NCBI GenBank assembly: GCA_003164215.1
Contig: PLSR01000003.1
Location: 28,892-92,891 of the forward strand
From: Candidatus Kaiserbacteria bacterium
Lineage (GTDB): Bacteria > Patescibacteriota > Minisyncoccia > Phycocordibacterales > UBA2100
DNA: 64,000 nt
Reading direction: 5' to 3'
Every line of letters starts with the position of its first letter. The first letter of the stretch is position 1. Below, one piece after another: positions 12,571 to 60,325 of the stretch. The position numbers were made by a program, and so were the translations under genes. The notes beneath the pieces are model-generated. The model worked only from the letters and a program-made list of their open reading frames with translations. It was not told the origin of the DNA and did not search any database.

Positions 12571-12688
12571 AATTCGACATCAAAACAGAGGCTCCCACAC
12601 GTTGTCTGGAGGATCAGATCCTCCAGAATAATCGCTTACGCACGAAGCCGCATATCGTTACGTTCGACGGTGTGTTACTGCGTTACCT

Positions 12689-15527: not shown

Positions 15528-15962
15528 TTAGATACGACGAGGCTTCGGAGCGCGCGGGCCATTGTGCGGAACCGGAGTGTCGTCTGAGATGCGTACGACA
15601 TCGATCCCCTTACCGGCAAAAGCACGCAGCGCCGACTCACGGCCGGCACCGACACCGCGAATAATAACGTCGACTTCCTTCATGCCGATGATGTTCGCCT
15701 TATCGCCGACAAGCTCACCGACTTTGGCTGCCGCGAACGGTGTGCCCTTCTTCGCCCCGGAGAAACCGAGACTGCCCGAGGACGACCATGCGACGGCGTT
15801 GCCATTCTTATCGGCCAACAGCACCTTTGTGTTGTTGAAGGTCGCATGAATATGCAGGGTGCCCGCGGTGATATTTTTCTTTGCAACACGTGCGAGTGAT
15901 CGCGACTTAAGACCCGCGTCGACGGTACCGCCTGATTTTCTAATGATTCGTTTTTTTCCCAT
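15528..15962 (-). CDS. rpsK: 30S ribosomal protein S11
   Basis: 144 aa; TFNNT...GFSGAKKGTPFAA signature of S11. Confidence 0.9.
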   Translation of the reverse strand: MGKKRIIRKSGGTVDAGLKSRSLARVAKKNITAGTLHIHATFNNTKVLLADKNGNAVAWSSSGSLGFSGAKKGTPFAAAKVGELVGDKANIIGMKEVDVIIRGVGAGRESALRAFAGKGIDVVRISDDTPVPHNGPRAPKPRRI

Positions 15963-16722: not shown

Positions 16723-16766
16723 ATCTGCGCGTTGGAGAATACCAAAAAGTCCTTCTGCCGTCAAGC

Positions 16767-18281
16767 TTATTGGCCTTTTGCAGTGGAGGACGTTAGCGGT
16801 CCGGTGATTTCGATCTTGATCTTTGAGGGATCGCTCGGAAAACTACTGCTCCAGAATGGCTCTATACGGGCTCGCGCCGCCTCGATCCCGGGGAATCCCC
16901 CAATGACGGTCTGGAAGACGCTCTGGTCACGCCCTGCGAGCGCTTTCGCGAGGGCAGTCGTGTCAATGCTCCAGAGTATCTGCGCAGATCCGACGAGCGA
17001 AAAGTCGATAGGGGCCGTCCCGAGGGCGACCGGCGTTGTATTGGTCGGCTGTGCTCCATACCCTGTCCCGCCGATCACTTGGACCGGAGTGTTGTTCGTA
17101 TCGATCGCCATCGTCTGAGCAATAACTGCCGCAAATGCGTCTGAAGCAAATACCGGCACCTGGATGTGCACACTTTCCCCGATCGTCACCTGACTGCTTG
17201 TCGCAACTACATCAGGAAGGTCGCTGTAGGTTATCTCTGCAAGACCCGTGAATGCGACCGAACCCGGTACATTTTGCGATTGAACGTATTGCGCTGCCCG
17301 TTGTGCCAGACGCGTGCGCATATCTGAAACGGCAGCCTGGCGAATACTCGCGGAAATGCCGGGTTGTGTTCCTGAAAAGCCCCCGGTCATCGAGCCGGAC
17401 GATTGGGCATAAATTCCCGCATACATAGCGGCATTGGACTGGAGGCCGGGAACAGTGAGGCGTGGAGTAGGTCCGATGTTGTACTGCTGACCAACTTGAT
17501 CTGCGAATACGGTGACCGTCACTTGACCGGGGGTCGAACCTTGTTTCCCCGGGATGACGACATCCGCTGGAACACGGAATATCAGGCCGGCAGGCGTCTG
17601 GAAGCGGGTGTCCTTGATGAGTTTGACGCTCGCCGTGGAATAATTGTTGTACACCGTGATGGAGCCCGATGCTTTCATCTGGGTCTCAGTCGTACCGTTG
17701 CTCTGAACCGTTTCAGAATCCTGTAAATCGGTCGTTGCGACGGTATATGCGAGCGTCCCAGTTGCGGCACTCGATGCGGGGTATGCGCTAAATTCAGAGG
17801 TCTGGTCGAAATTCACCGTTTGCGTCCGTGCTGTCAGAGTGACCGTCGTGGAACGGAACATGAAAAGCGCCAGAAATCCAACTACAACCACCCCGATGAC
17901 CGCAAGGATCCAAATCCATACACGGGAATACTTGGAACGCGGCTTCGGAGGCAATCCGCGGCCCGACCCCGTGGACGGTGTCTCGCCGAGTTCGTTCGTC
18001 GATGATCGATAGCGTGCTCGGGGCGGCATGTTTATGTTGCGAATACCACGCGCCGGAGCGGCATCTATTGTTGAAATGTCATCATCGTCGTACTCAGGAG
18101 CTGACTGAGCCATGACAGACGGCTGCTCCGGTTGGTTTGGAGGAGCGATTGGAACCTTTCGCGTTGTCGGGCGAATCGGACGGTCACCCGATGGCGGGAC
18201 AATATCCTGAAAATAATCTTTGGCCATATGACTCAGTAGTATACCACGCACCCGGTCAGGACTGCTCTTCGGTGTTGACAA
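16767..18281 (-). CDS. hypothetical single-pass membrane protein (Pro-rich cytoplasmic N-terminus, TM, large Thr/Ser/Gln-rich extracytoplasmic domain); possible PilN/PilO-like
   Basis: 504 aa; TM segment VWIWILAVIGVVVVGFLALFMF near residue 130; INMPP motif resembling the PilN INLLP motif; 26-nt overlap with the upstream actin-fold gene. Confidence 0.5.
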   Translation of the reverse strand: MSTPKSSPDRVRGILLSHMAKDYFQDIVPPSGDRPIRPTTRKVPIAPPNQPEQPSVMAQSAPEYDDDDISTIDAAPARGIRNINMPPRARYRSSTNELGETPSTGSGRGLPPKPRSKYSRVWIWILAVIGVVVVGFLALFMFRSTTVTLTARTQTVNFDQTSEFSAYPASSAATGTLAYTVATTDLQDSETVQSNGTTETQMKASGSITVYNNYSTASVKLIKDTRFQTPAGLIFRVPADVVIPGKQGSTPGQVTVTVFADQVGQQYNIGPTPRLTVPGLQSNAAMYAGIYAQSSGSMTGGFSGTQPGISASIRQAAVSDMRTRLAQRAAQYVQSQNVPGSVAFTGLAEITYSDLPDVVATSSQVTIGESVHIQVPVFASDAFAAVIAQTMAIDTNNTPVQVIGGTGYGAQPTNTTPVALGTAPIDFSLVGSAQILWSIDTTALAKALAGRDQSVFQTVIGGFPGIEAARARIEPFWSSSFPSDPSKIKIEITGPLTSSTAKGQ

Positions 18282-30520: not shown

Positions 30521-31546
<1,026 letters not shown>

Positions 31547-31641
31547 GGTAATGGTGGGTCAAATTGACTATTGAGATTCGTATGTCTTATGTTGTATCAA
31601 ACATATCCTTAGCCGTCAAGGGCAATCGGCCCCAGGATATT

Positions 31642-31664
31642 TGAGCAAGGCGAAACCTTGCTCA
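31642..31664. repeat. REP-like hairpin copy 1 (TGAGCAAGG-CGAAA-CCTTGCTCA)
   Basis: 9-bp stem, 5-nt loop; same unit recurs at 31880 and, inverted, at 31911. Confidence 0.6.
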
Positions 31665-31715
31665 TGATCTTCCGAAGCTCCGGGCGAGTCGCATTTAGAG
31701 TATACTTGTACCTAT

Positions 31716-31860
31716 ATGCGAAAGGGGTCATTCGCACCGGGAGAGTTCTATCATTTGTATAACCGCGGGACTGACAAGCGGAAGGTCTTTTCGTGTGAAC
31801 GCGACTACAAACGCTTCATTTCTTTGCTGTACCTCTGTAACAGTACAGGAGCTATCAGAG
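31716..31860 (+). pseudogene. remnant of IS200/IS605-family (Y1, REP-associated-like) transposase, N-terminal fragment only
   Basis: GEFYHLYNRGTDKRKVFSCERDYKRFISLL matches the conserved N-terminal block of Y1 transposases; the reading frame then runs into the REP hairpin and stops, with no HuH/Tyr motifs. Confidence 0.55.
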
Positions 31861-31878
31861 TTGATAATCTAGGGAGAA

Positions 31879-31933
31879 ATGAGCAAGGCGAAACCTTGCT
31901 CATTATAATTTGAGCAAGGTTTCGCCTTGCTCA
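31879..31933. repeat. inverted REP-like doublet (REPIN-like)
   Basis: ATGAGCAAGGCGAAACCTTGCTCAT-TATAATT-TGAGCAAGGTTTCGCCTTGCTCA: two copies of the hairpin in opposite orientation. Confidence 0.6.
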
Positions 31934-31967
31934 GTGATAACTGTGGCTTGCACACATCTAGTAGTCA

Positions 31968-31994
31968 TAGTGGCCATGGTGCCCATGGCCACTA
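31968..31994. repeat. perfect 12-bp-stem palindrome (TAGTGGCCATGG-TGC-CCATGGCCACTA)
   Basis: seen directly; 11 nt downstream of the stop of the 32005..32553 gene; no U-tract. Confidence 0.5.
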
Positions 31995-32004
31995 GCTCCC
32001 GCGG

Positions 32005-32553
32005 TTAGAGGAACTTCCAGGTCTGCATGATCTGGCCCAGCCAGCTGTCGAGCTCCTTAAAGGTCGTGACCTCGTAGAGATAGCTATCGTGGGTGAACCA
32101 AACCTCACGCGTATCGCCCAGTATGTCGTTGTGGCCGAAGAACATAGTCGCCGTTACTCCGCCGATAACGACGGCGGTCGGCTGATCCATCACACCGGAG
32201 GGCTCGTCGAGCTTGAAGCGTTGCTCGGTCACCTTCGTATCGGGGTATGGCGTGACGTATATTTCGAACCCTTCGTTCGTATCGGGATCCTGAAATGAGA
32301 AGGTGTATGCACCGCCGGGCTCTTGAGTCTGAGTCGGTACCAAGTCAGGCGGATACGAAAGTGAAAAACCAAACTGCTGATTCGAGAATGGAATAAAATC
32401 CGACGGCGTAGAAGATGATGCGGCATACGTGTCCGCGATCGCTTGCTGTCCAGCAACGTTGGACGACTGACACCAAATGAACAATCCGGCAATAACAACG
32501 GCGAGTGTTGTCCCCCATATTGCAATACCCATCAGAAAAGATTTGTTCTTCAT
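32005..32553 (-). CDS. hypothetical secreted/membrane-anchored protein
   Basis: 182 aa; N-terminal signal/anchor (LMGIAIWGTTLAVVIAGLFIW); start 5 nt after the stop of the Gly-rich protein gene. Confidence 0.5.
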   Translation of the reverse strand: MKNKSFLMGIAIWGTTLAVVIAGLFIWCQSSNVAGQQAIADTYAASSSTPSDFIPFSNQQFGFSLSYPPDLVPTQTQEPGGAYTFSFQDPDTNEGFEIYVTPYPDTKVTEQRFKLDEPSGVMDQPTAVVIGGVTATMFFGHNDILGDTREVWFTHDSYLYEVTTFKELDSWLGQIMQTWKFL

Positions 32554-32557
32554 ATCG

Positions 32558-33187
32558 CTACAACTTCGGCCAGTAGGTTATGACAATGATTCCCGACCCA
32601 CCAGTGCCGCCGCTGAATGCAGTCGCTCCATCCACGCCGCCACCGCCAGGTTTTCCCAAAGCGGCGTCCCCCGTACCGCCGATTCCTCCGGAAAATCCCG
32701 TACCGGTACCAACGACGCCCGCCGCTCCTGCGGTAGCGTTCGTGCCATTACCTGCACCTGTGCAAGAAAGAACCGTCGTGCTTGTTTTGTCTTGAAAGTA
32801 TGTTGCGAGCCCGGTGCCGCCGCCACCCGCCTCAACATAGAGATTTACTGTGGACTGGCTCGCGCTTACGTTGTTGACATACGCGTAGGAGCCTCCGCCT
32901 CCGCCGGCACCGGCATATCCAGAAGTACCATAGTGTACCCCGTTGCCGCCCGAGCCGATGCACTCGACCTTGTTGTTGCCGTCGTTCCAGTCGGAAGGAG
33001 CGGTGAAAGTGCTCACACCCGTCGCGGTGACGAAGGCAACACAGGTGCTCCCGATGACGGAGAACGTGAGGTTGCCATTGTTTAGACAAGTGGTCGCCGA
33101 TGCCGTAATTGGCATCGAACACATGATGAGGATGAATATGGGGAGCGGTAGCAATGACGTGAGGAACTTTTTCATGTTATCGAGCAT
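32558..33187 (-). CDS. glycine-rich secreted protein
   Basis: 209 aa; signal peptide then G/T/A/S-rich repeats (GGGGGSYAY, GTGTGFSGGIGGTG, GGTGGSG). Confidence 0.5.
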   Translation of the reverse strand: MLDNMKKFLTSLLPLPIFILIMCSMPITASATTCLNNGNLTFSVIGSTCVAFVTATGVSTFTAPSDWNDGNNKVECIGSGGNGVHYGTSGYAGAGGGGGSYAYVNNVSASQSTVNLYVEAGGGGTGLATYFQDKTSTTVLSCTGAGNGTNATAGAAGVVGTGTGFSGGIGGTGDAALGKPGGGGVDGATAFSGGTGGSGIIVITYWPKL

Positions 33188-50215: not shown

Positions 50216-51505
50216 TTAATCGCGTGTCAAACTTCGGTCTCGTCGCTTCCGATGCCAGCTGATAGCGAAACGATGCGCTTCGGCGTTGGCGAGCAGGATG
50301 TCGTGCTCGTAGGCTTTAATCGCACGCGAATCCCCTATCAAATGATCCGCCTTATGCGCATCATTTTTCACGACGCCGACGATCGGAATCTCAACGCCTG
50401 CACTTTTCAAGACTCGCTGTGCCGCACGAAGCTGCGCCGTACCGCCATCGACGACAAATACGCGCGGTAGAGGCCATTCGGCGTGCTCTAGGCGGCGTGA
50501 GAGCACCTCCTCGAGTGATGCGACATCGTCGTTGGTCGAGGTTTTGATCTTGAACTTTCGATATGCTTCCTTCAGTGCCATCCCATCGCGGACGACGGTC
50601 ATTACAGCGACAGTCTCCGTGCCGCCAGTGTGCGCCGTGTCATACGCCTCGATACGGCCATTTACCCCGAGTTCACTCGAGGGGCCGCCCGAGGAGATTC
50701 GATTCTCATCGTTCTTGATGAGCGACACATCGCGGATATGTTCAAGCGCTCCGATTTGTCGATGCAGCATCTGTGCATCTTCGAATCGCTCGGCGACAGC
50801 GGCGGCTTTCATCTCACGCGCGAGTTGCCGTTTGAGTCCTTGGAAATTCCCGGAGAAAAGCGCCGTGATATGCGATACGTACCGTGCATATTCTTTCTTG
50901 TCGACTTCCCCACTGCACACACCTGGACAAAGCCCGAGCTGACGGTTGAAACAAGGCTTGCACTTAGATACAAAGATCAGATCTTTGTATTTTTGGGTAT
51001 TTTCAGGGCTACACGGTGTGCACGTGTCGCGAAATGGGAATATCTTGCGTACGATCTTCAGCGCTTCCTTGAGAGACCCACCTTCCGGGAACGGTCCAAA
51101 TAATTTCTTAATATCCTTGTCGTTCCATTTCTGGAAAAGATCTCGCCCGCGCACGATCAAGACACGCGGGAAATCTTCTTTGGTGACGACCAGATAGTTG
51201 AAACTTTTGTTGTCCTTGTCGCGAATGTTGTACGGAGGCTGGTATTGCTTGATGAGATTTGCTTCGAGTATCAACGCCTCGAGAACGGAGCCGGTTTCTG
51301 TCCACGTAAGTGTATGCGCCGTCGCAGCCATCTTCGCAATGGCAGAACTTCGCGTCTCGGCGATATCCAATGCGAAATAACTCCGCACGCGATCGCGCAG
51401 CGATGCAGCTTTACCGATATACAAGATCTCATGCTTGGTGCCACGGAACATGTACACCCCCGGATGATCCGGGAGTTTGAGCGCTGCAAGTTCTTCACGT
51501 GTCAT
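50216..51505 (-). CDS. uvrC: excinuclease ABC subunit C, short form
   Basis: start set to MTREELAALKLPDHPGVYMF; GIY-YIG N-terminal domain and UvrBC-interaction region; only ~429 aa, so a C-terminal HhH/RNaseH-like part is probably missing. Confidence 0.8.
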   Translation of the reverse strand: MTREELAALKLPDHPGVYMFRGTKHEILYIGKAASLRDRVRSYFALDIAETRSSAIAKMAATAHTLTWTETGSVLEALILEANLIKQYQPPYNIRDKDNKSFNYLVVTKEDFPRVLIVRGRDLFQKWNDKDIKKLFGPFPEGGSLKEALKIVRKIFPFRDTCTPCSPENTQKYKDLIFVSKCKPCFNRQLGLCPGVCSGEVDKKEYARYVSHITALFSGNFQGLKRQLAREMKAAAVAERFEDAQMLHRQIGALEHIRDVSLIKNDENRISSGGPSSELGVNGRIEAYDTAHTGGTETVAVMTVVRDGMALKEAYRKFKIKTSTNDDVASLEEVLSRRLEHAEWPLPRVFVVDGGTAQLRAAQRVLKSAGVEIPIVGVVKNDAHKADHLIGDSRAIKAYEHDILLANAEAHRFAISWHRKRRDRSLTRD

Positions 51506-51962: not shown

Positions 51963-54620
51963 CTATTTCTTGGCTCGTTTTAAGACTCGTTTCAGGTAGT
52001 AGCCAGTGTGCGATCCATCGGTCTTCGAAACTTCTTCGGGTGTGCCCTTCGCGACGATCTTGCCGCCGCGCGCGCCGCCTTCAGGGCCCATGTCGATGAT
52101 GTAATCCGCACATTTGAGGACGTCGAGATTATGTTCGATGACGATCACCGTATTACCTCGTTCGACGAGCTTCTGCAAAATGTCGATCAGCTTGTTCACG
52201 TCGTCATAATGCAAACCGACCGTCGGCTCATCGAGAAGATAGACGGTCTTCGTCATGAGCGGTCGGTATAATTCCGACGCGATCTTCACGCGCTGTGCTT
52301 CGCCGCCGGAAAGTGTCGTCGCGCTCTGTCCGAGCTCGAGATAGCCAAGACCAACGTCAGCAAGTGATTTCAAGCGGTCGGTCACCGCCGGTATATCTTC
52401 GAAAAAGTCGATCGCTTGTTCGACCGTCATCGTCAGCACTTCGTAAATATTCTTCTTCTTGTATTTGACATCGAGCGTTTCCTTCATAAATCGCTTGCCG
52501 TTGCAGACATCGCAGGTCACATAAACCGTCGGCAGGAAGTGCATTTCGACAGCGACGAGCCCGTTGCCCTGGCACGCCTCACAGCGCCCGCCCTTCACAT
52601 TGAATGAAAATCTGCCCGGTCCCCAGCCTCGCGCGCGTGCTTCCTCGCTCATCGCAAACATGTCACGAATGTGCGTCCAGGCACCCGTGTAGGTCGCCGG
52701 ATTCGAGCGTGGCGTGCGACCGATCGGCGATTGATCAATGAGAATGGAGCGTCCGAGATATTCGGTGCCGCTGAATTCCTTACAGTTGTAAATTTTTGCC
52801 GTACGGAAGCGTTTGTCGAATTTTGCGAGCAAGTTGCGATGCAAAACTTCGTAGAGAAATGTTGATTTTCCAGAACCGGAGACGCCGGTGATGCAGACGA
52901 GTTTAGAAAGCGGCACGTCAACGTTCAGATCTTTCATATTGAACTTGCTTGCCCCGCGTATCTTGATCTTGCCGCGGTCGGCGGTGCGGCGTTTCTCCGG
53001 GATCTCAATAGCCGTTTCCTCACGTAAATATGACAGCGTACGTGAACCCGATTTGTTGGTCTTTGCAGTAAGCAGATCTTCGAGCCAACCGGAAGCGACG
53101 ATATTGCCACCGTGCACGCCCGCGCCCGGACCGATATCAACGATATAGTCCGACGCATAGATCGTGTCCTCGTCGTGCTCGACGACGATGACGGTGTTCC
53201 CCAGGTCTCGCAGGTGCTTCAGGGTCTCGATAAGCTTGTCGTTATCGCGTTGATGTAAGCCGATCGTCGGTTCATCGAGCACGTACAGTGCTCCGACAAG
53301 GCCTGAACCGAGCTGTGATGCCAGACGGATACGCTGCGCCTCTCCGCCCGAGAGTGTATTTGCTTTGCGGTCGAGCGTCAGATATTCGATTCCGACATTG
53401 AGCATGAATTGCAGGCGCGACGTGATCTCTTTGTTGATGCCGCGCGATATGTCGGTTTCTTTGGCCGAAAGTTTGAGATGATCGAAAAACGATTGCGCAT
53501 TTTCGATCGACAGCGAGGAAAGACTCACGATGTTCATGCCCGTTGCTGGACCTTTATGATCCGCTGGCTCTTTAACGGGGCCCAGAAATACGTTCAACGC
53601 TTCGGGTCGCAGACGCGCACCTTTGCAGACCGGGCACTCTTCATCACTAAAGAGATAGAGCGTGCCGAGGCCTTTGCATTCGGGACAAGCACCATACGGA
53701 CTATTGAATGAGAAAAGGCGCGGCTCGACTTCGGGAAATGAAAAGCCATCATACGGGCACATAAATTTCGCCGAGACGATGTGCGGCGCACCTGCTGCGT
53801 CAGTGATCTTGACCAAACCTTCCGATTCGTGGAGCGCGCGCTCGATCGCCTCGCTCGCACGCTCTCGGGCAGCCTTTGAATCGTCGACGAATTCCGAGAC
53901 AAAGATCTCATCAACAATCACATCGATATCATGCCGATCATTCTTCTCAAGGATGATACGTTCGCGCAGTGATTTTTCCTCGCCGTCAATGACGACTTTC
54001 TCGTAGCCCTTGTTCAAGAGATCATAGAGCAACTGGTAGTACTCGCCTTTGCGACCAACGACGATCGGCGAACTGATGCGGATCTTCGCGTCCGTAACTC
54101 CAGCGATCAAGGTCTGACCTTTCGATTTCCCCAAGGTCGGCCCTTTTGACTTTCGGGCCTTTTCAACGATATCAAGAACAGATGCGAGTATTTCTTCGTT
54201 CGATTGTTTCTTCACTTCCCTGCCGCATTCCGGACAATGCGGATGACCGATACGCGCATAGAGGACACGCAGGTAGTCATAGATCTCGGTGATCGTCGCA
54301 ACGGTCGAACGCGGGTTGTTGGAACGCGATTTTTGATCAATAGAAATTGCGGGCGAAAGGCCGGTGATCTCGTCGACATCGGGCTTCTGCATTTGCCGCA
54401 AGAATTGCCGCGCATAGGCGGAAAGCGACTCGACATATTTGCGCTGACCTTCGGCGAAGATCGTATCGAACGCGAGCGATGACTTCCCCGAACCCGAAAG
54501 TCCGGTGAATACCACCATTTTATTGCGCGGGATCTCCACGTTCACGTTCTTCAAGTTGTGCGTCCGCGCGCCCTTGATGACGATCTTGCCAGCGTCGAAG
54601 TTTTTTGATTTATCATCCAT
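51963..54620 (-). CDS. uvrA: excinuclease ABC subunit A
   Basis: start set to [25 protein letters not shown]; two ABC ATPase modules with Walker [10 protein letters not shown] and GVSGSGKST and zinc-finger inserts. Confidence 0.9.
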
Positions 54621-54758
54621 ATGTATACGTATTTTCCACTTAGAAACTCGGCTCTCAAGTACTTTCGTCCACACCAACTCCGACCCCCGCTTTGCACTAG
54701 GGGTTGGCTTGTCCCGAGGGAGCTCGCTCCTTTTCGGGGTATGGGCACTATACCATAG

Positions 54759-55689: not shown

Positions 55690-57774
55690 TTACTCTTTGA
55701 GTTTCGCCTTTTTCTTCGCCGCCGGATCTTTCGGCGGATTTTCAAGGCGTGAAATTTCATCGCGCAGTAGGGCGGCGGTTTCGAAGTCGAGGGCATCAGC
55801 CGCCTTATGCATTTCCTGGCGTTTCTCTTTGATCAATTTCTTTACATCGCCACCATATGCCGCAACGTCGGTCTGCGCCAGGTCGGATACCGCGCGCGTG
55901 CGTGCCTTTTGAATATCGCCGACGATGTCGTGAATGCGTTTGATGATCGTTTGCGGAGTAATGCCATGTGCCTTGTTGTATGCGATCTGTATATCGCGAC
56001 GACGATTCGTTTCGCCAACGGCACGGTCAAGTGAGCCCGTCATATGATCTGCATACAGAATGACGCGTCCTTCGACGTTGCGTGCCGCACGTCCAATAGT
56101 TTGAATGAGGGACGTCTCACTACGAAGGAATCCTTCTTTGTCCGCGTCGAGAATTCCCACAAGCTCGACTTCGGGAAGATCGAGTCCTTCGCGCAAGAGG
56201 TTCACGCCCACAAGCACATCGAATTCCCCACGACGAAATGCGGTAAGGATCTCGATACGTTCGATCGTTTTGATGTCGCTGTGAATGTATTTGGCGCGGA
56301 TCTGTTTTTCGACCAGGAATTGGGCAAGGTCTTCAGCCATCTTTTTGGTGAGCACCGTTACCATACTTCGTGCTCCGCGTGCCGTGACCTTTTCTGCCTC
56401 CGTAATGAAATCTTTGACCTGCCCCGGGTACGGATTCCCAAAGGTCTGACCTTGGGCTCCCTTAAGGTCGGACCTTGAGGAATCCGCCGACCCACTTACC
56501 ACCGGCCGGATAACGATCTCCGGATCAACGAGACCCGTCGGACGAATAACTTGCGAGATCGGTTCGCCGCTGCGCTCAAGTTCAAATGTGCCGGGTGTTG
56601 CTGATGTATAGATCGTCTGCCCGTGGCGCTTTTGGAATTCATCGAATTTGAGCGGACGATTGTCCAATGCACTTGGAAGTCGAAAACCATATTGTATGAG
56701 CGTCTCTTTGCGGGCACGATCGCCCGCGTACATCCCGCCAATCTGCGGGATCGTCACGTGCGATTCATCAATAACGGTAAGGAAATCCTTCGGAAAATAA
56801 CTCAAAAGTGTATAAGGTGGTTCGCCGGGTTTTCTTCGATCGAAATGGCGAGAATAATTCTCGATACCGTTGCAATAGCCGAACTCCTTGATCATCGAAA
56901 TATCTTGTCGTACGCGGCGCTTGAGGCGCTCATGCTCGATCACTTTGTCAGGGCCCTCCAATTGCTTCAACCGTTCGGCAAGCTCCTGTTCGATATCGGC
57001 GACCGCCGCATCTTGAACGTCTTTCGGCGTAACATAATGCTTTGCGGGAAAGAAGAATACTGAATCGACAGATCGCTCAATGACGCGTGTGATCGCGTTG
57101 ATCTCCTCGATCTTCGTGACTTTACCACCCATGAGATCAATGCGGTGAATGACGCGTTCATTCGCCGGCATGACTTCAATGGTCGAACCGAGTGCACGAA
57201 AGGTGCCTGGCGAAAGATCCCCTGCAACCCGCTCGAAATACATGCCGATCAGTTTTCGCGTGAGCGCGGCACGCGTCATCGCCTCTCCTTTTGCAATTTT
57301 CAAATTCACCTTTTGATATTCAATCGGGCTACCGAGTCCATAGATGCACGAGACCGACGCGACGACAATAACGTCATCGCGCGAAAGCAGAGCTTGTGTC
57401 GCTGCATGTCGCAGACGTTCGATGTCTTCGTTCACCATCGCTTCCTTCTCGATGAACGTGTCCGTTACCGGCATATATGCCTCCGGCTGATAGTAGTCGT
57501 AGTACGAAACGAAATAGTGCACAGCCGCATCTGGAAAGAACTCGCGATATTCGGCAGCGAGTTGTGCGGCGAGCGTCTTATTGTGTGCGATGACCAAGGT
57601 CGGCTTCTGCCATTGTTCAATGACATTCGCGATCGTGAACGTTTTACCCGAGCCCGTCACGCCCAAAAGCGTCTGGTCGCGCGTACCCGATTTAAGCCCA
57701 TTAACTAAGGACGTTATCGCCTTCGGCTGATCCCCCGCCGGTGTATAGTCCGATTTGATCTTGAACTGCGCCAT
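55690..57774 (-). CDS. uvrB: excinuclease ABC subunit B (carries an in-frame ~24-aa insertion encoded by a palindromic repeat)
   Basis: 694 aa; helicase motifs (GVTGSGKT, DESH), beta-hairpin, UVR C-terminal domain; insertion VSGSADSSRSDLKGAQGQTFGNPYP relative to canonical ..RPV-(A/E)-GQ(V/I)DDL.. Confidence 0.9.
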   Translation of the reverse strand: MAQFKIKSDYTPAGDQPKAITSLVNGLKSGTRDQTLLGVTGSGKTFTIANVIEQWQKPTLVIAHNKTLAAQLAAEYREFFPDAAVHYFVSYYDYYQPEAYMPVTDTFIEKEAMVNEDIERLRHAATQALLSRDDVIVVASVSCIYGLGSPIEYQKVNLKIAKGEAMTRAALTRKLIGMYFERVAGDLSPGTFRALGSTIEVMPANERVIHRIDLMGGKVTKIEEINAITRVIERSVDSVFFFPAKHYVTPKDVQDAAVADIEQELAERLKQLEGPDKVIEHERLKRRVRQDISMIKEFGYCNGIENYSRHFDRRKPGEPPYTLLSYFPKDFLTVIDESHVTIPQIGGMYAGDRARKETLIQYGFRLPSALDNRPLKFDEFQKRHGQTIYTSATPGTFELERSGEPISQVIRPTGLVDPEIVIRPVVSGSADSSRSDLKGAQGQTFGNPYPGQVKDFITEAEKVTARGARSMVTVLTKKMAEDLAQFLVEKQIRAKYIHSDIKTIERIEILTAFRRGEFDVLVGVNLLREGLDLPEVELVGILDADKEGFLRSETSLIQTIGRAARNVEGRVILYADHMTGSLDRAVGETNRRRDIQIAYNKAHGITPQTIIKRIHDIVGDIQKARTRAVSDLAQTDVAAYGGDVKKLIKEKRQEMHKAADALDFETAALLRDEISRLENPPKDPAAKKKAKLKE
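56430..56486. repeat. palindromic repeat element inside the uvrB coding sequence
   Basis: GGATTCC..GACCTTGG-GCTC-CCTTAAGGTC..GGAATCC imperfect palindrome; same family as 35341-35396. Confidence 0.55.

Positions 57775-57819: not shown

Positions 57820-60325
<2,506 letters not shown>

Follow-up and report, generated by a model that had tools for sequence, protein, structure and literature searches.

A hairpin-bracketed, RAYT-like Y1 transposase cassette in a Kaiserbacteria-like genome, probably broken by deletion between its own hairpins

At 31640-31935, the window (the whole 64-kb stretch of DNA analysed here) very probably contains a dead, RAYT-like Y1 transposase cassette, bracketed by hairpins and broken by a deletion between two of its own hairpin copies. 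Taken by itself, the locus is an ordinary pseudogene: the window copy is a descendant of its family and not a functional member, with both the HUH motif and the catalytic tyrosine gone. The remnant led, however, to a large family in Patescibacteria in which the gene stands between hairpins specific to the lineage. Work on REP/RAYT systems has been confined almost wholly to Proteobacteria. The initial annotation had read the locus as a decayed one of the REP/RAYT kind, which is supported here in the form of a Y1-transposase/hairpin cassette of the RAYT/REPtron kind; it had also remarked that REP-associated transposases are hardly described in CPR-like genomes, and no literature linking REP/RAYT systems to CPR bacteria was found.

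Three hairpin copies between two minus-strand genes

The locus lies between the minus-strand genes 30521..31546, whose product carries sigma-70 region 4 and HARE-HTH domains, and 32005..32553, whose product is weakly PsbP-like. Elsewhere in the window, UvrB shares 96% identity with a JGI protein, and those of its relatives that are named belong to Kaiserbacteria; these affinities indicate that the window comes from a Kaiserbacteria-like CPR genome.

Three exact copies of the 23-nt hairpin TGAGCAAGGCGAAACCTTGCTCA are present, at 31642-31664 (+), 31880-31902 (+), and 31911-31933 (-), just where the initial annotation had placed them, and the chance expectation for this sequence in the window is 0 (100 shuffles). 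The unit is laid out as T-GAGCAAGG-CGAAA-CCTTGCTC-A with variable flanks, and a single copy folds as a stem of 9 bp around a loop of 5 nt (-9.8 kcal/mol, z = -5.4). The GTAG or CGTC tetranucleotide that tags classical REPs is absent from the hairpin foot, and there is no T-run 3′ of the single copies. The upstream copy (31642..31664, plus strand), recognised by exact match and fold, has its 9-bp stem and CGAAA loop 51 nt 5′ of the ATG of the gene fragment described below; the intact cassettes at loci L013 and L022 carry the same hairpin in the equivalent relative position.

The second copy (31880..31902, plus strand) and the third (31911..31933, minus strand, with its loop reading TTTCG on the plus strand) are separated by an 8-nt spacer, TTATAATT (31903..31910), the counterpart of which on contig L028 is TTAATTT (7 nt). 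Together they fold as one hairpin with a 23-bp stem and an 8-nt loop (31880-31933; -29.7 kcal/mol, z = -12.5), and their earlier description as a REPIN-like doublet thus holds. An inverted copy after the stop codon is likewise found in L028 (769-791) and L013 (1386-1408). Allowing up to three mismatches yielded no fourth copy of TGAGCAAGGCGAAACCTTGCTCA in the 64-kb window, where the hairpin is confined to the cassette. A search for further copies had been proposed as a check on the initial annotation; it succeeded in two related genomes (12 copies in a Kaiserbacteria MAG and 5 in MAG ELA268) but yielded none outside the cassette in the 64-kb window, which counts against the main reading.

Between the doublet and the end of gene 32005..32553 there is also an unrelated palindrome with a 12-bp stem (31968-31994; TAGTGGCCATGG TGC CCATGGCCACTA), which sits within approximately 50 nt missing from the syntenic contig L028. 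Two further palindromes with 10-bp stems, TCTGGAGGATCAGATCCTCCAGA and ATACAAAGATCAGATCTTTGTAT, share the centre GATCAGATC and lie at 12605-12627 and 50968-50990. An Rfam search of 31000-32600 returned only sub-threshold miRNA-precursor models, which match any long hairpin, and these were rejected.

The remnant of a Y1 transposase gene

The ORF at 31716-31913 (plus strand) encodes 65 amino acids, beginning with MRKGSFAPGEFYHLYNRG, continuing through DYKRFISLLYLCN, and ending in NEQGETLLIII and a stop codon. It comprises codons 1-55 of the N terminus, the hairpin-encoded EQGETLL, and then III and a stop contributed by the 3′ spacer. It ends at codon 65, before the HUH motif and before the catalytic tyrosine; neither motif is present or follows in the ORF, as had been stated at the outset.

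Pfam and NCBIfam gave no usable match for the 65-residue fragment (none to PF01797 at E ≤ 1), and this want of a significant match of its own counts against the main reading. A protein search with the fragment recovered three relatives, of which P0003 runs on into MPNHFHII, containing the HUH motif; over 67-69 residues, the fragment is 84% identical to P0014 and 61% identical to P0004. The latter is the intact 232-residue product of the gene at L013, a locus of a Candidatus Kaiserbacteria MAG that was reached by searching the hairpin sequence in one genome per species, and its N terminus is like that of the fragment. P0004 and P0014 score 35.2 and 32 bits, respectively, against PF01797 (cut-off 23), but only over residues 67-157, the HUH-to-Tyr part; the fragment has no PF01797 score because it is this part that is deleted in the window. 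The alignment to PF01797 proposed earlier therefore fails for the fragment itself and succeeds for its relatives. The ORF is accordingly identified, by sequence homology running through these relatives, as the N terminus of a PF01797 Y1/HUH (RAYT-like) transposase. The initial annotation had claimed a 48-residue match to the N-terminal block of Y1 transposases: the homology stands, whereas the stretch is nearer 62 residues than 48.

The sole NCBIfam match of P0004 and P0014 is NF047646 ('REP-associated tyrosine transposase'), at 35.4 and 43.1 bits and thus below the cut-off of 80. Among 35 sequences of relatives, PNHFH and Y..YIHLNP are invariant. An AF2 (AlphaFold) model of P0004 built from 35 relatives reached a pLDDT of 87.5, and its top PDB match in Foldseek is 4ER8_A, the E. 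coli RAYT with a REP hairpin (E = 6.7e-4, TM 0.62 by target length), with ISDra2 and IS608 TnpA ranking next. Sequence searches of the PDB with P0004 and with the family profile gave nothing significant, the best match again being 4ER8 (E = 0.35). The family numbers 7361 database proteins at E < 1e-10, the named ones almost all from Patescibacteria. No other Y1 gene was found in the 64-kb window by tblastn with the intact relatives.

A probable deletion between two hairpin copies

The intact counterpart of the window locus is found on L028, a short Logan contig that encodes P0014 and on which the downstream neighbour is an orthologue of window gene 32005..32553; L028 ends 30 nt upstream of the gene, and its synteny with the window thus covers one side only. 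Within the L028 gene, a plus-strand hairpin lies in frame at nt 216-238 as the codons for EQGETLL. After the stop codon there follow a plus-strand copy (739-761), a 7-nt spacer, and a minus-strand copy (769-791). The plus-strand copies at 216 and 739 are perfect 23-nt direct repeats, 523 bp apart. When these 523 bp are removed in silico, L028 becomes colinear with window positions 31690-32560 at 80% nucleotide identity overall, the match running from the gene start through hairpin, spacer, and inverted copy into the neighbouring gene. The left flank of the copy at 31880..31902 is that of the in-gene copy in the intact cassette and its right flank that of the first 3′ copy, which places the deletion junction within the 23 identical bases. 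The window is therefore L028 minus the interval between the repeats, that is, a deletion derivative without HUH and Tyr. The structure of this product and the existence of an intact syntenic allele are direct observations. They also amend the earlier remark that the frame reads through the hairpin and then stops: it does so, but the hairpin is native coding sequence (EQGETLL) and the stop arises from the deletion, which fused the 3′ spacer to this hairpin.

Over 55 codons, the fragment and L028 differ mostly at synonymous positions (pN/pS = 0.18). This low ratio suggests that the deletion may be recent relative to the split of the window and L028 lineages; alternatively, it could reflect residual constraint. 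A second and independent truncation, directly after the internal hairpin, is seen at L001, which has another hairpin type and lies at another locus.

Ancestrally, the cassette would have opened with a plus-strand hairpin, followed by the 5′ end of the gene, the plus-strand in-frame hairpin (EQGETLL), the remainder of the gene with HUH, Tyr, and the stop codon, and then a plus-strand hairpin, the spacer, and a minus-strand hairpin. The 523 bp would afterwards have been lost by recombination between the hairpin inside the gene and the first of the 3′ copies, leaving the present remnant. As to the agent, the deletion may have arisen by replication slippage or short-homology recombination between the repeats, or it may have been made by the Y1 enzyme, cutting and rejoining at two hairpins. 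IS608 TnpA excises single-stranded DNA by cleavage and rejoining at two hairpins. Slippage and the Y1 enzyme would both yield the observed product, and the sequence cannot tell the two agents apart.

By homology with E. coli TnpA-REP and IS608 TnpA, we infer that the intact enzyme would bind the folded hairpin in single-stranded DNA, recognise the conserved AGG/CCT tip, and cut beside the hairpin via a 5′-phosphotyrosine intermediate. The remnant has no such activity left, and its hairpins would act at most passively, for instance as a barrier to transcription, or at the mRNA level, between the minus-strand genes on either side.

A hairpin-bracketed cassette common in Patescibacteria

Eighty relative loci were retrieved from metagenomes, and family statistics were drawn from 79 of them. 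The architecture seen across these loci is that of a cassette common in Patescibacteria: a Y1 HUH gene of ~225 codons, belonging to the RAYT/IS200 superfamily, bracketed by copies of a lineage-specific hairpin. Perfect hairpins whose stems reach 7 bp or more cluster at three places: just 5′ of the start codon, some 155 nt inside the gene, and at the stop codon or beyond it. Within the 150 nt upstream of the gene, 65/79 loci have a perfect hairpin of 6 bp or longer. At 56 of 73 loci, a stretch of 12 nt or more (median 19 nt) is common to the two flanks of the gene; it is always a palindrome and differs between lineages. The cassettes at L028, L013, and L022 have an identical 23-nt hairpin and the same three-part layout, albeit with proteins only ~61% identical.

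The hairpin within the gene is matched to those outside it. At 16/77 loci, 12 nt or more of the upstream flank recur at the internal site, as against 1-2/77 for equal-sized control windows in the same gene. Internal hairpins at 17 loci represent 15 distinct sequences, every one with a perfect stem of 6 to 15 bp, in which a conserved AGG(N)/(N)CCT tip stands above freely co-varying lower pairs (compensatory variation). The peptides they encode are very diverse, including QGRTL, DIPIGEAYGNE, KLREGLTFTEL, and FFNRGLASVEI. These co-varying perfect stems, together with the match to the flanks, indicate that palindromy at the in-gene position is maintained at the level of nucleic acid. Carriers are concentrated in one half of the protein tree and patchy within it. 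The notion that the internal hairpin is an extra insertion in the gene was rejected, since the loop is of similar length with and without it (median 68 versus 67 residues). In the P0004 model, EQGETLL (residues 63-69) lies between helix 35-48 and strand 84-91, as a loop followed by the opening turn of a short helix; the internal site is thus, as modelled, a surface loop between helix 1 and the strand leading to the HUH motif.

The internal hairpin may be a functional site, or else an in-frame REP that is tolerated and kept in uniformity with the other copies. It is conceivable, if doubtful, that it serves as a third working recognition site of the enzyme, that the gene could thereby regulate or delete itself by cutting and joining at the internal and 3′ sites, and that the enzyme family also seeds and removes in-frame hairpins at fixed loops of UvrA, UvrB, UvrC, Tgt, LigA, and AlaRS. 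Were this so, truncated alleles of the window and L001 type would be regular products of the system, and the family would be a driver of protein-loop variation in reduced CPR genomes.

Some peculiarities of individual cassettes may be recorded here. An imperfect 42-nt direct repeat (582-623 and 1431-1472) brackets the whole intact cassette at L013 and is the 3′ end of a neighbouring DsbA-like gene; Y1 transposition, which makes no target duplications, would not account for it. At L022 (1285-1343 and about 1840), in MAG ELA268, the TGA stop codon of the intact Y1 gene is formed by the first three bases of the 3′ hairpin. This 3′ hairpin is present as a tandem 38-nt duplication, and the internal copy there has one change (GAGCGAGG), its pairing being kept as G-T.

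Dispersed copies and in-frame hairpins in host genes

The 12 hairpin copies in the Kaiserbacteria MAG (CAVYCR01) are spread over five contigs, 9 of them lying outside the cassette, and a Y1 gene is present at only one of the MAG's hairpin loci. MAG ELA268 has 5, with 3 exact copies in the L022 cassette and those of L011 and L021 on contigs apart from it. Such numbers of non-cassette copies (9 and 2) are low for a repeat whose classical REP counterparts run to hundreds. Only 10 further copies, too small a number to speak to dispersal, came from the 3 kb on either side of the 80 metagenome loci. Single matches in Competibacter, Burkholderiaceae, Anatilimnocola, and Pseudomonas were dismissed as chance, being ordinary coding sequence that reads EQGETLL.

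All but one of the nine non-cassette copies in the Kaiserbacteria MAG lie inside long ORFs, on the sense strand every time, and 7 of these 8 read EQGETLL. The hosts of these GAAA-type hairpins (L010, L017, L018, L019, L020, L026, and L027) encode UvrB (with two tandem copies), NAD-ligase, AlaRS, TsaD, COX1, a GatA-type amidase, and a probable LysRS; each of these assignments has Pfam confirmation apart from that of the LysRS fragment. The window orthologues of AlaRS and COX1 are without the element, and the MAG genes are longer there by 12 and 24 nt. One copy in the MAG that falls in the TGA frame has its leading T changed to G.

Hairpins of other types occur in frame in the window itself. The uvrB gene (55690..57774, minus strand) carries two tandem, slightly decayed hairpins at 56440-56477, CTCAAGGTCCGACCTTAAG and CCAAGGTCAGACCTTTGG, which read 'SRSDLKGAQGQTFG' in a loop bounded by RPVVS and YPGQVKDF; a pair of GAAA-type hairpins occupies this place in the Kaiserbacteria MAG. 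Of 120 relatives, some have an empty loop, even at 86-89% identity, and the rest have it filled by pairs of at least four hairpin types. The boundaries of the uvrB insert could not be placed against L112, which is too diverged. In uvrA (51963..54677, minus strand), there is an in-frame tandem pair of decayed AAGGTCNGACCTT-type hairpins at 54108-54146, and the UvrA of L111 (whose UvrB is 96% identical) has unrelated, shorter sequence at the same spot. The tgt gene (57820..59079, minus strand) contains a perfect in-frame 47-nt palindrome with a 21-bp stem at 58670-58716. It lies in the one patch that varies in a protein with 90% identity to its orthologue elsewhere, and the window has 8 additional residues there. 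A peptide similar to that encoded by the palindrome (DFVNPDMSGFTKS) occupies the uvrB hot spot of P0151, and no further copy of the 47-nt sequence was found in the window or in any of the loci.

On L109, where UvrB is 88% identical, uvrC has two in-frame hairpins, TACAGAGGTC[A/G]GTCCTCTGTA, at 16725-16819, and a third hairpin type, TACAAGGTCGAACCTTGTA, follows uvrA at 15746-15764. Several hairpin families can therefore coexist in one genome, and all three uvr genes serve as hosts. The idea of one hairpin type per genome, co-evolving with a single enzyme, is weakened by the three types of L109, which lie in uvrB, uvrC, and the spacer downstream of uvrA, and by the at least two types in the window.

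Alternative explanations

The locus might instead be the remnant of an autonomous IS200/IS605-type insertion sequence, in which the hairpins would be left and right ends and not a REP population served by a domesticated RAYT. Cognate hairpins directly at both gene ends in most loci would suit such an element, as would the low hairpin copy numbers (12 for the Kaiserbacteria MAG and, for the window, those of the cassette alone) and the occupation of different loci by the cassette in the window and L013. Yet hairpins are found solitary and gene-less on five MAG contigs, with a Y1 gene at only one of the hairpin loci. The two sides of the gene, moreover, carry identical and in many cases inverted copies, whereas the LE and RE hairpins of IS608 are distinct and lie on the same strand. 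The top structural and NCBIfam matches are to RAYT and not to IS200, no tnpB-like ORF adjoins the gene, and the cassette has retained one and the same neighbouring gene in the window and in L028, at ~80% nucleotide identity. An IS200-type origin is thus unlikely, and less likely than one of the RAYT/REPtron kind.

It is more improbable still that the 65-codon ORF encodes a working small protein, such as an N-terminal-only regulator that binds the hairpin. Judged from the model of the intact protein, the fragment supplies no more of the HUH fold than strand 1, helix 1, and a loop, and its C-terminal III and stop derive from the spacer. The ORF is nevertheless open and free of frameshifts, and short forms do recur (P0001 on 9 contigs, and P0002), but these end at different points and have unrelated tails; likewise, the pN/pS of 0.18 against L028, which could speak for a functional product, is predicted equally by a recent deletion. 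Finally, the hairpins could be host terminators or attenuators whose closeness to the transposase gene is incidental. The doublet does score as terminator-like on the minus strand, downstream of gene 32005..32553, but the same hairpin brackets and sits within intact Y1 genes in three genomes, its sequence changes together with the gene lineage across the family, and single copies are followed by no T-run, which makes this explanation barely credible. A dead RAYT-like cassette, cut short between its own hairpins, remains the preferred reading.

Significance

The deletion between hairpin copies provides a concrete route of death for genes of this kind, and short ORFs like that of the window should, when met in CPR MAGs, be annotated as pseudogenes of the cassette. 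In one clade, the gene carries the same hairpin in frame, palindromic through 15 sequences: this is natural covariation evidence that the hairpin is selected as a DNA or RNA structure inside a coding region. The in-frame hairpins of uvrA, uvrB, and tgt extend the phenomenon of intragenic REPs to genomes with almost no intergenic space.

Comparison with known systems

The E. coli TnpA-REP (RAYT) gene is reportedly flanked by REP/BIME sequences, as Ton-Hoang 2012 and Messing 2012 are said to have described. This REPtron is, like the cassette, a Y1 HUH gene bracketed by cognate palindromic hairpins with solitary copies elsewhere (here, in the related MAGs), and loss of the REPtron by deletion has been reported among E. 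coli strains (PMC3733652). The cassette differs in that its hairpins are without the GTAG/CGTC tag, its copy number is very low, and its host belongs to the CPR; its proteins fall far under the NCBIfam RAYT cut-off (35-43 versus 80 bits), and there is an extra in-frame copy inside the gene. The intact family thus has cognate hairpins on both flanks and a fold nearest to that of TnpA-REP, and it has neither the GTAG tag nor a score above the NCBIfam cut-off. The locus very probably descends from a REPtron, a RAYT-like gene with cognate palindromes, and would work like one.

With the REPIN-RAYT systems of Pseudomonas (Bertels and Rainey; PMC3116915, PMC5581495), the window shares a doublet of two inverted hairpins that form one long hairpin adjoining a Y1 gene. 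The gene may also be vertically inherited at a stable locus, as the common downstream neighbour in the window and L028 hints, and the one Y1 gene among the hairpin loci of the MAG hints at a single gene copy per genome. The spacing in the window doublet is 8 nt, however, whereas that of REPINs is tens of nt, and the dispersed copies of the related MAG are for the most part solitary or in direct repeat, and located within genes. The doublet at 31880-31933 is the only one of this hairpin in the 64-kb window, in which there is no dispersed doublet population.

The IS200/IS605 elements (IS608 and ISDra2 TnpA; PDB 2VJV and 2XM3) have the same HUH/Tyr fold and recognise hairpins at the element ends. 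Their known chemistry, precise and seamless excision between two hairpin-defined sites, would give exactly the deletion seen in the window. The ends of IS608 are, however, non-identical imperfect hairpins on one strand, and the whole element is mobile in several copies; the cassette hairpins are identical, often inverted, and also found without the gene. In the window, L013, and L028, the gene is flanked by identical copies in inverted orientation, and the cassette has no second ORF.

Short palindromes in frame in genes are reportedly known as Rickettsia palindromic elements, said to go back to Ogata 2000. In-frame intragenic REPs have been described in uvrA, uvrB, ligase, and tRNA synthetase genes of Opitutus, Rickettsia, and Thioalkalivibrio (Di Nocera 2013, PMC3733652), and the same gene classes are hit in the Kaiserbacteria MAG and the window. 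The cassette elements are 23 nt long as opposed to the 100-150 nt of RPE-1, and the reports on intragenic REPs include no copy inside the transposase gene itself and none co-varying with flanking copies. Since intragenic REPs are already described, the in-frame copies in housekeeping genes are a new instance of a known phenomenon; what is new is the conserved, co-varying in-frame hairpin within the cassette, together with the deletion route.
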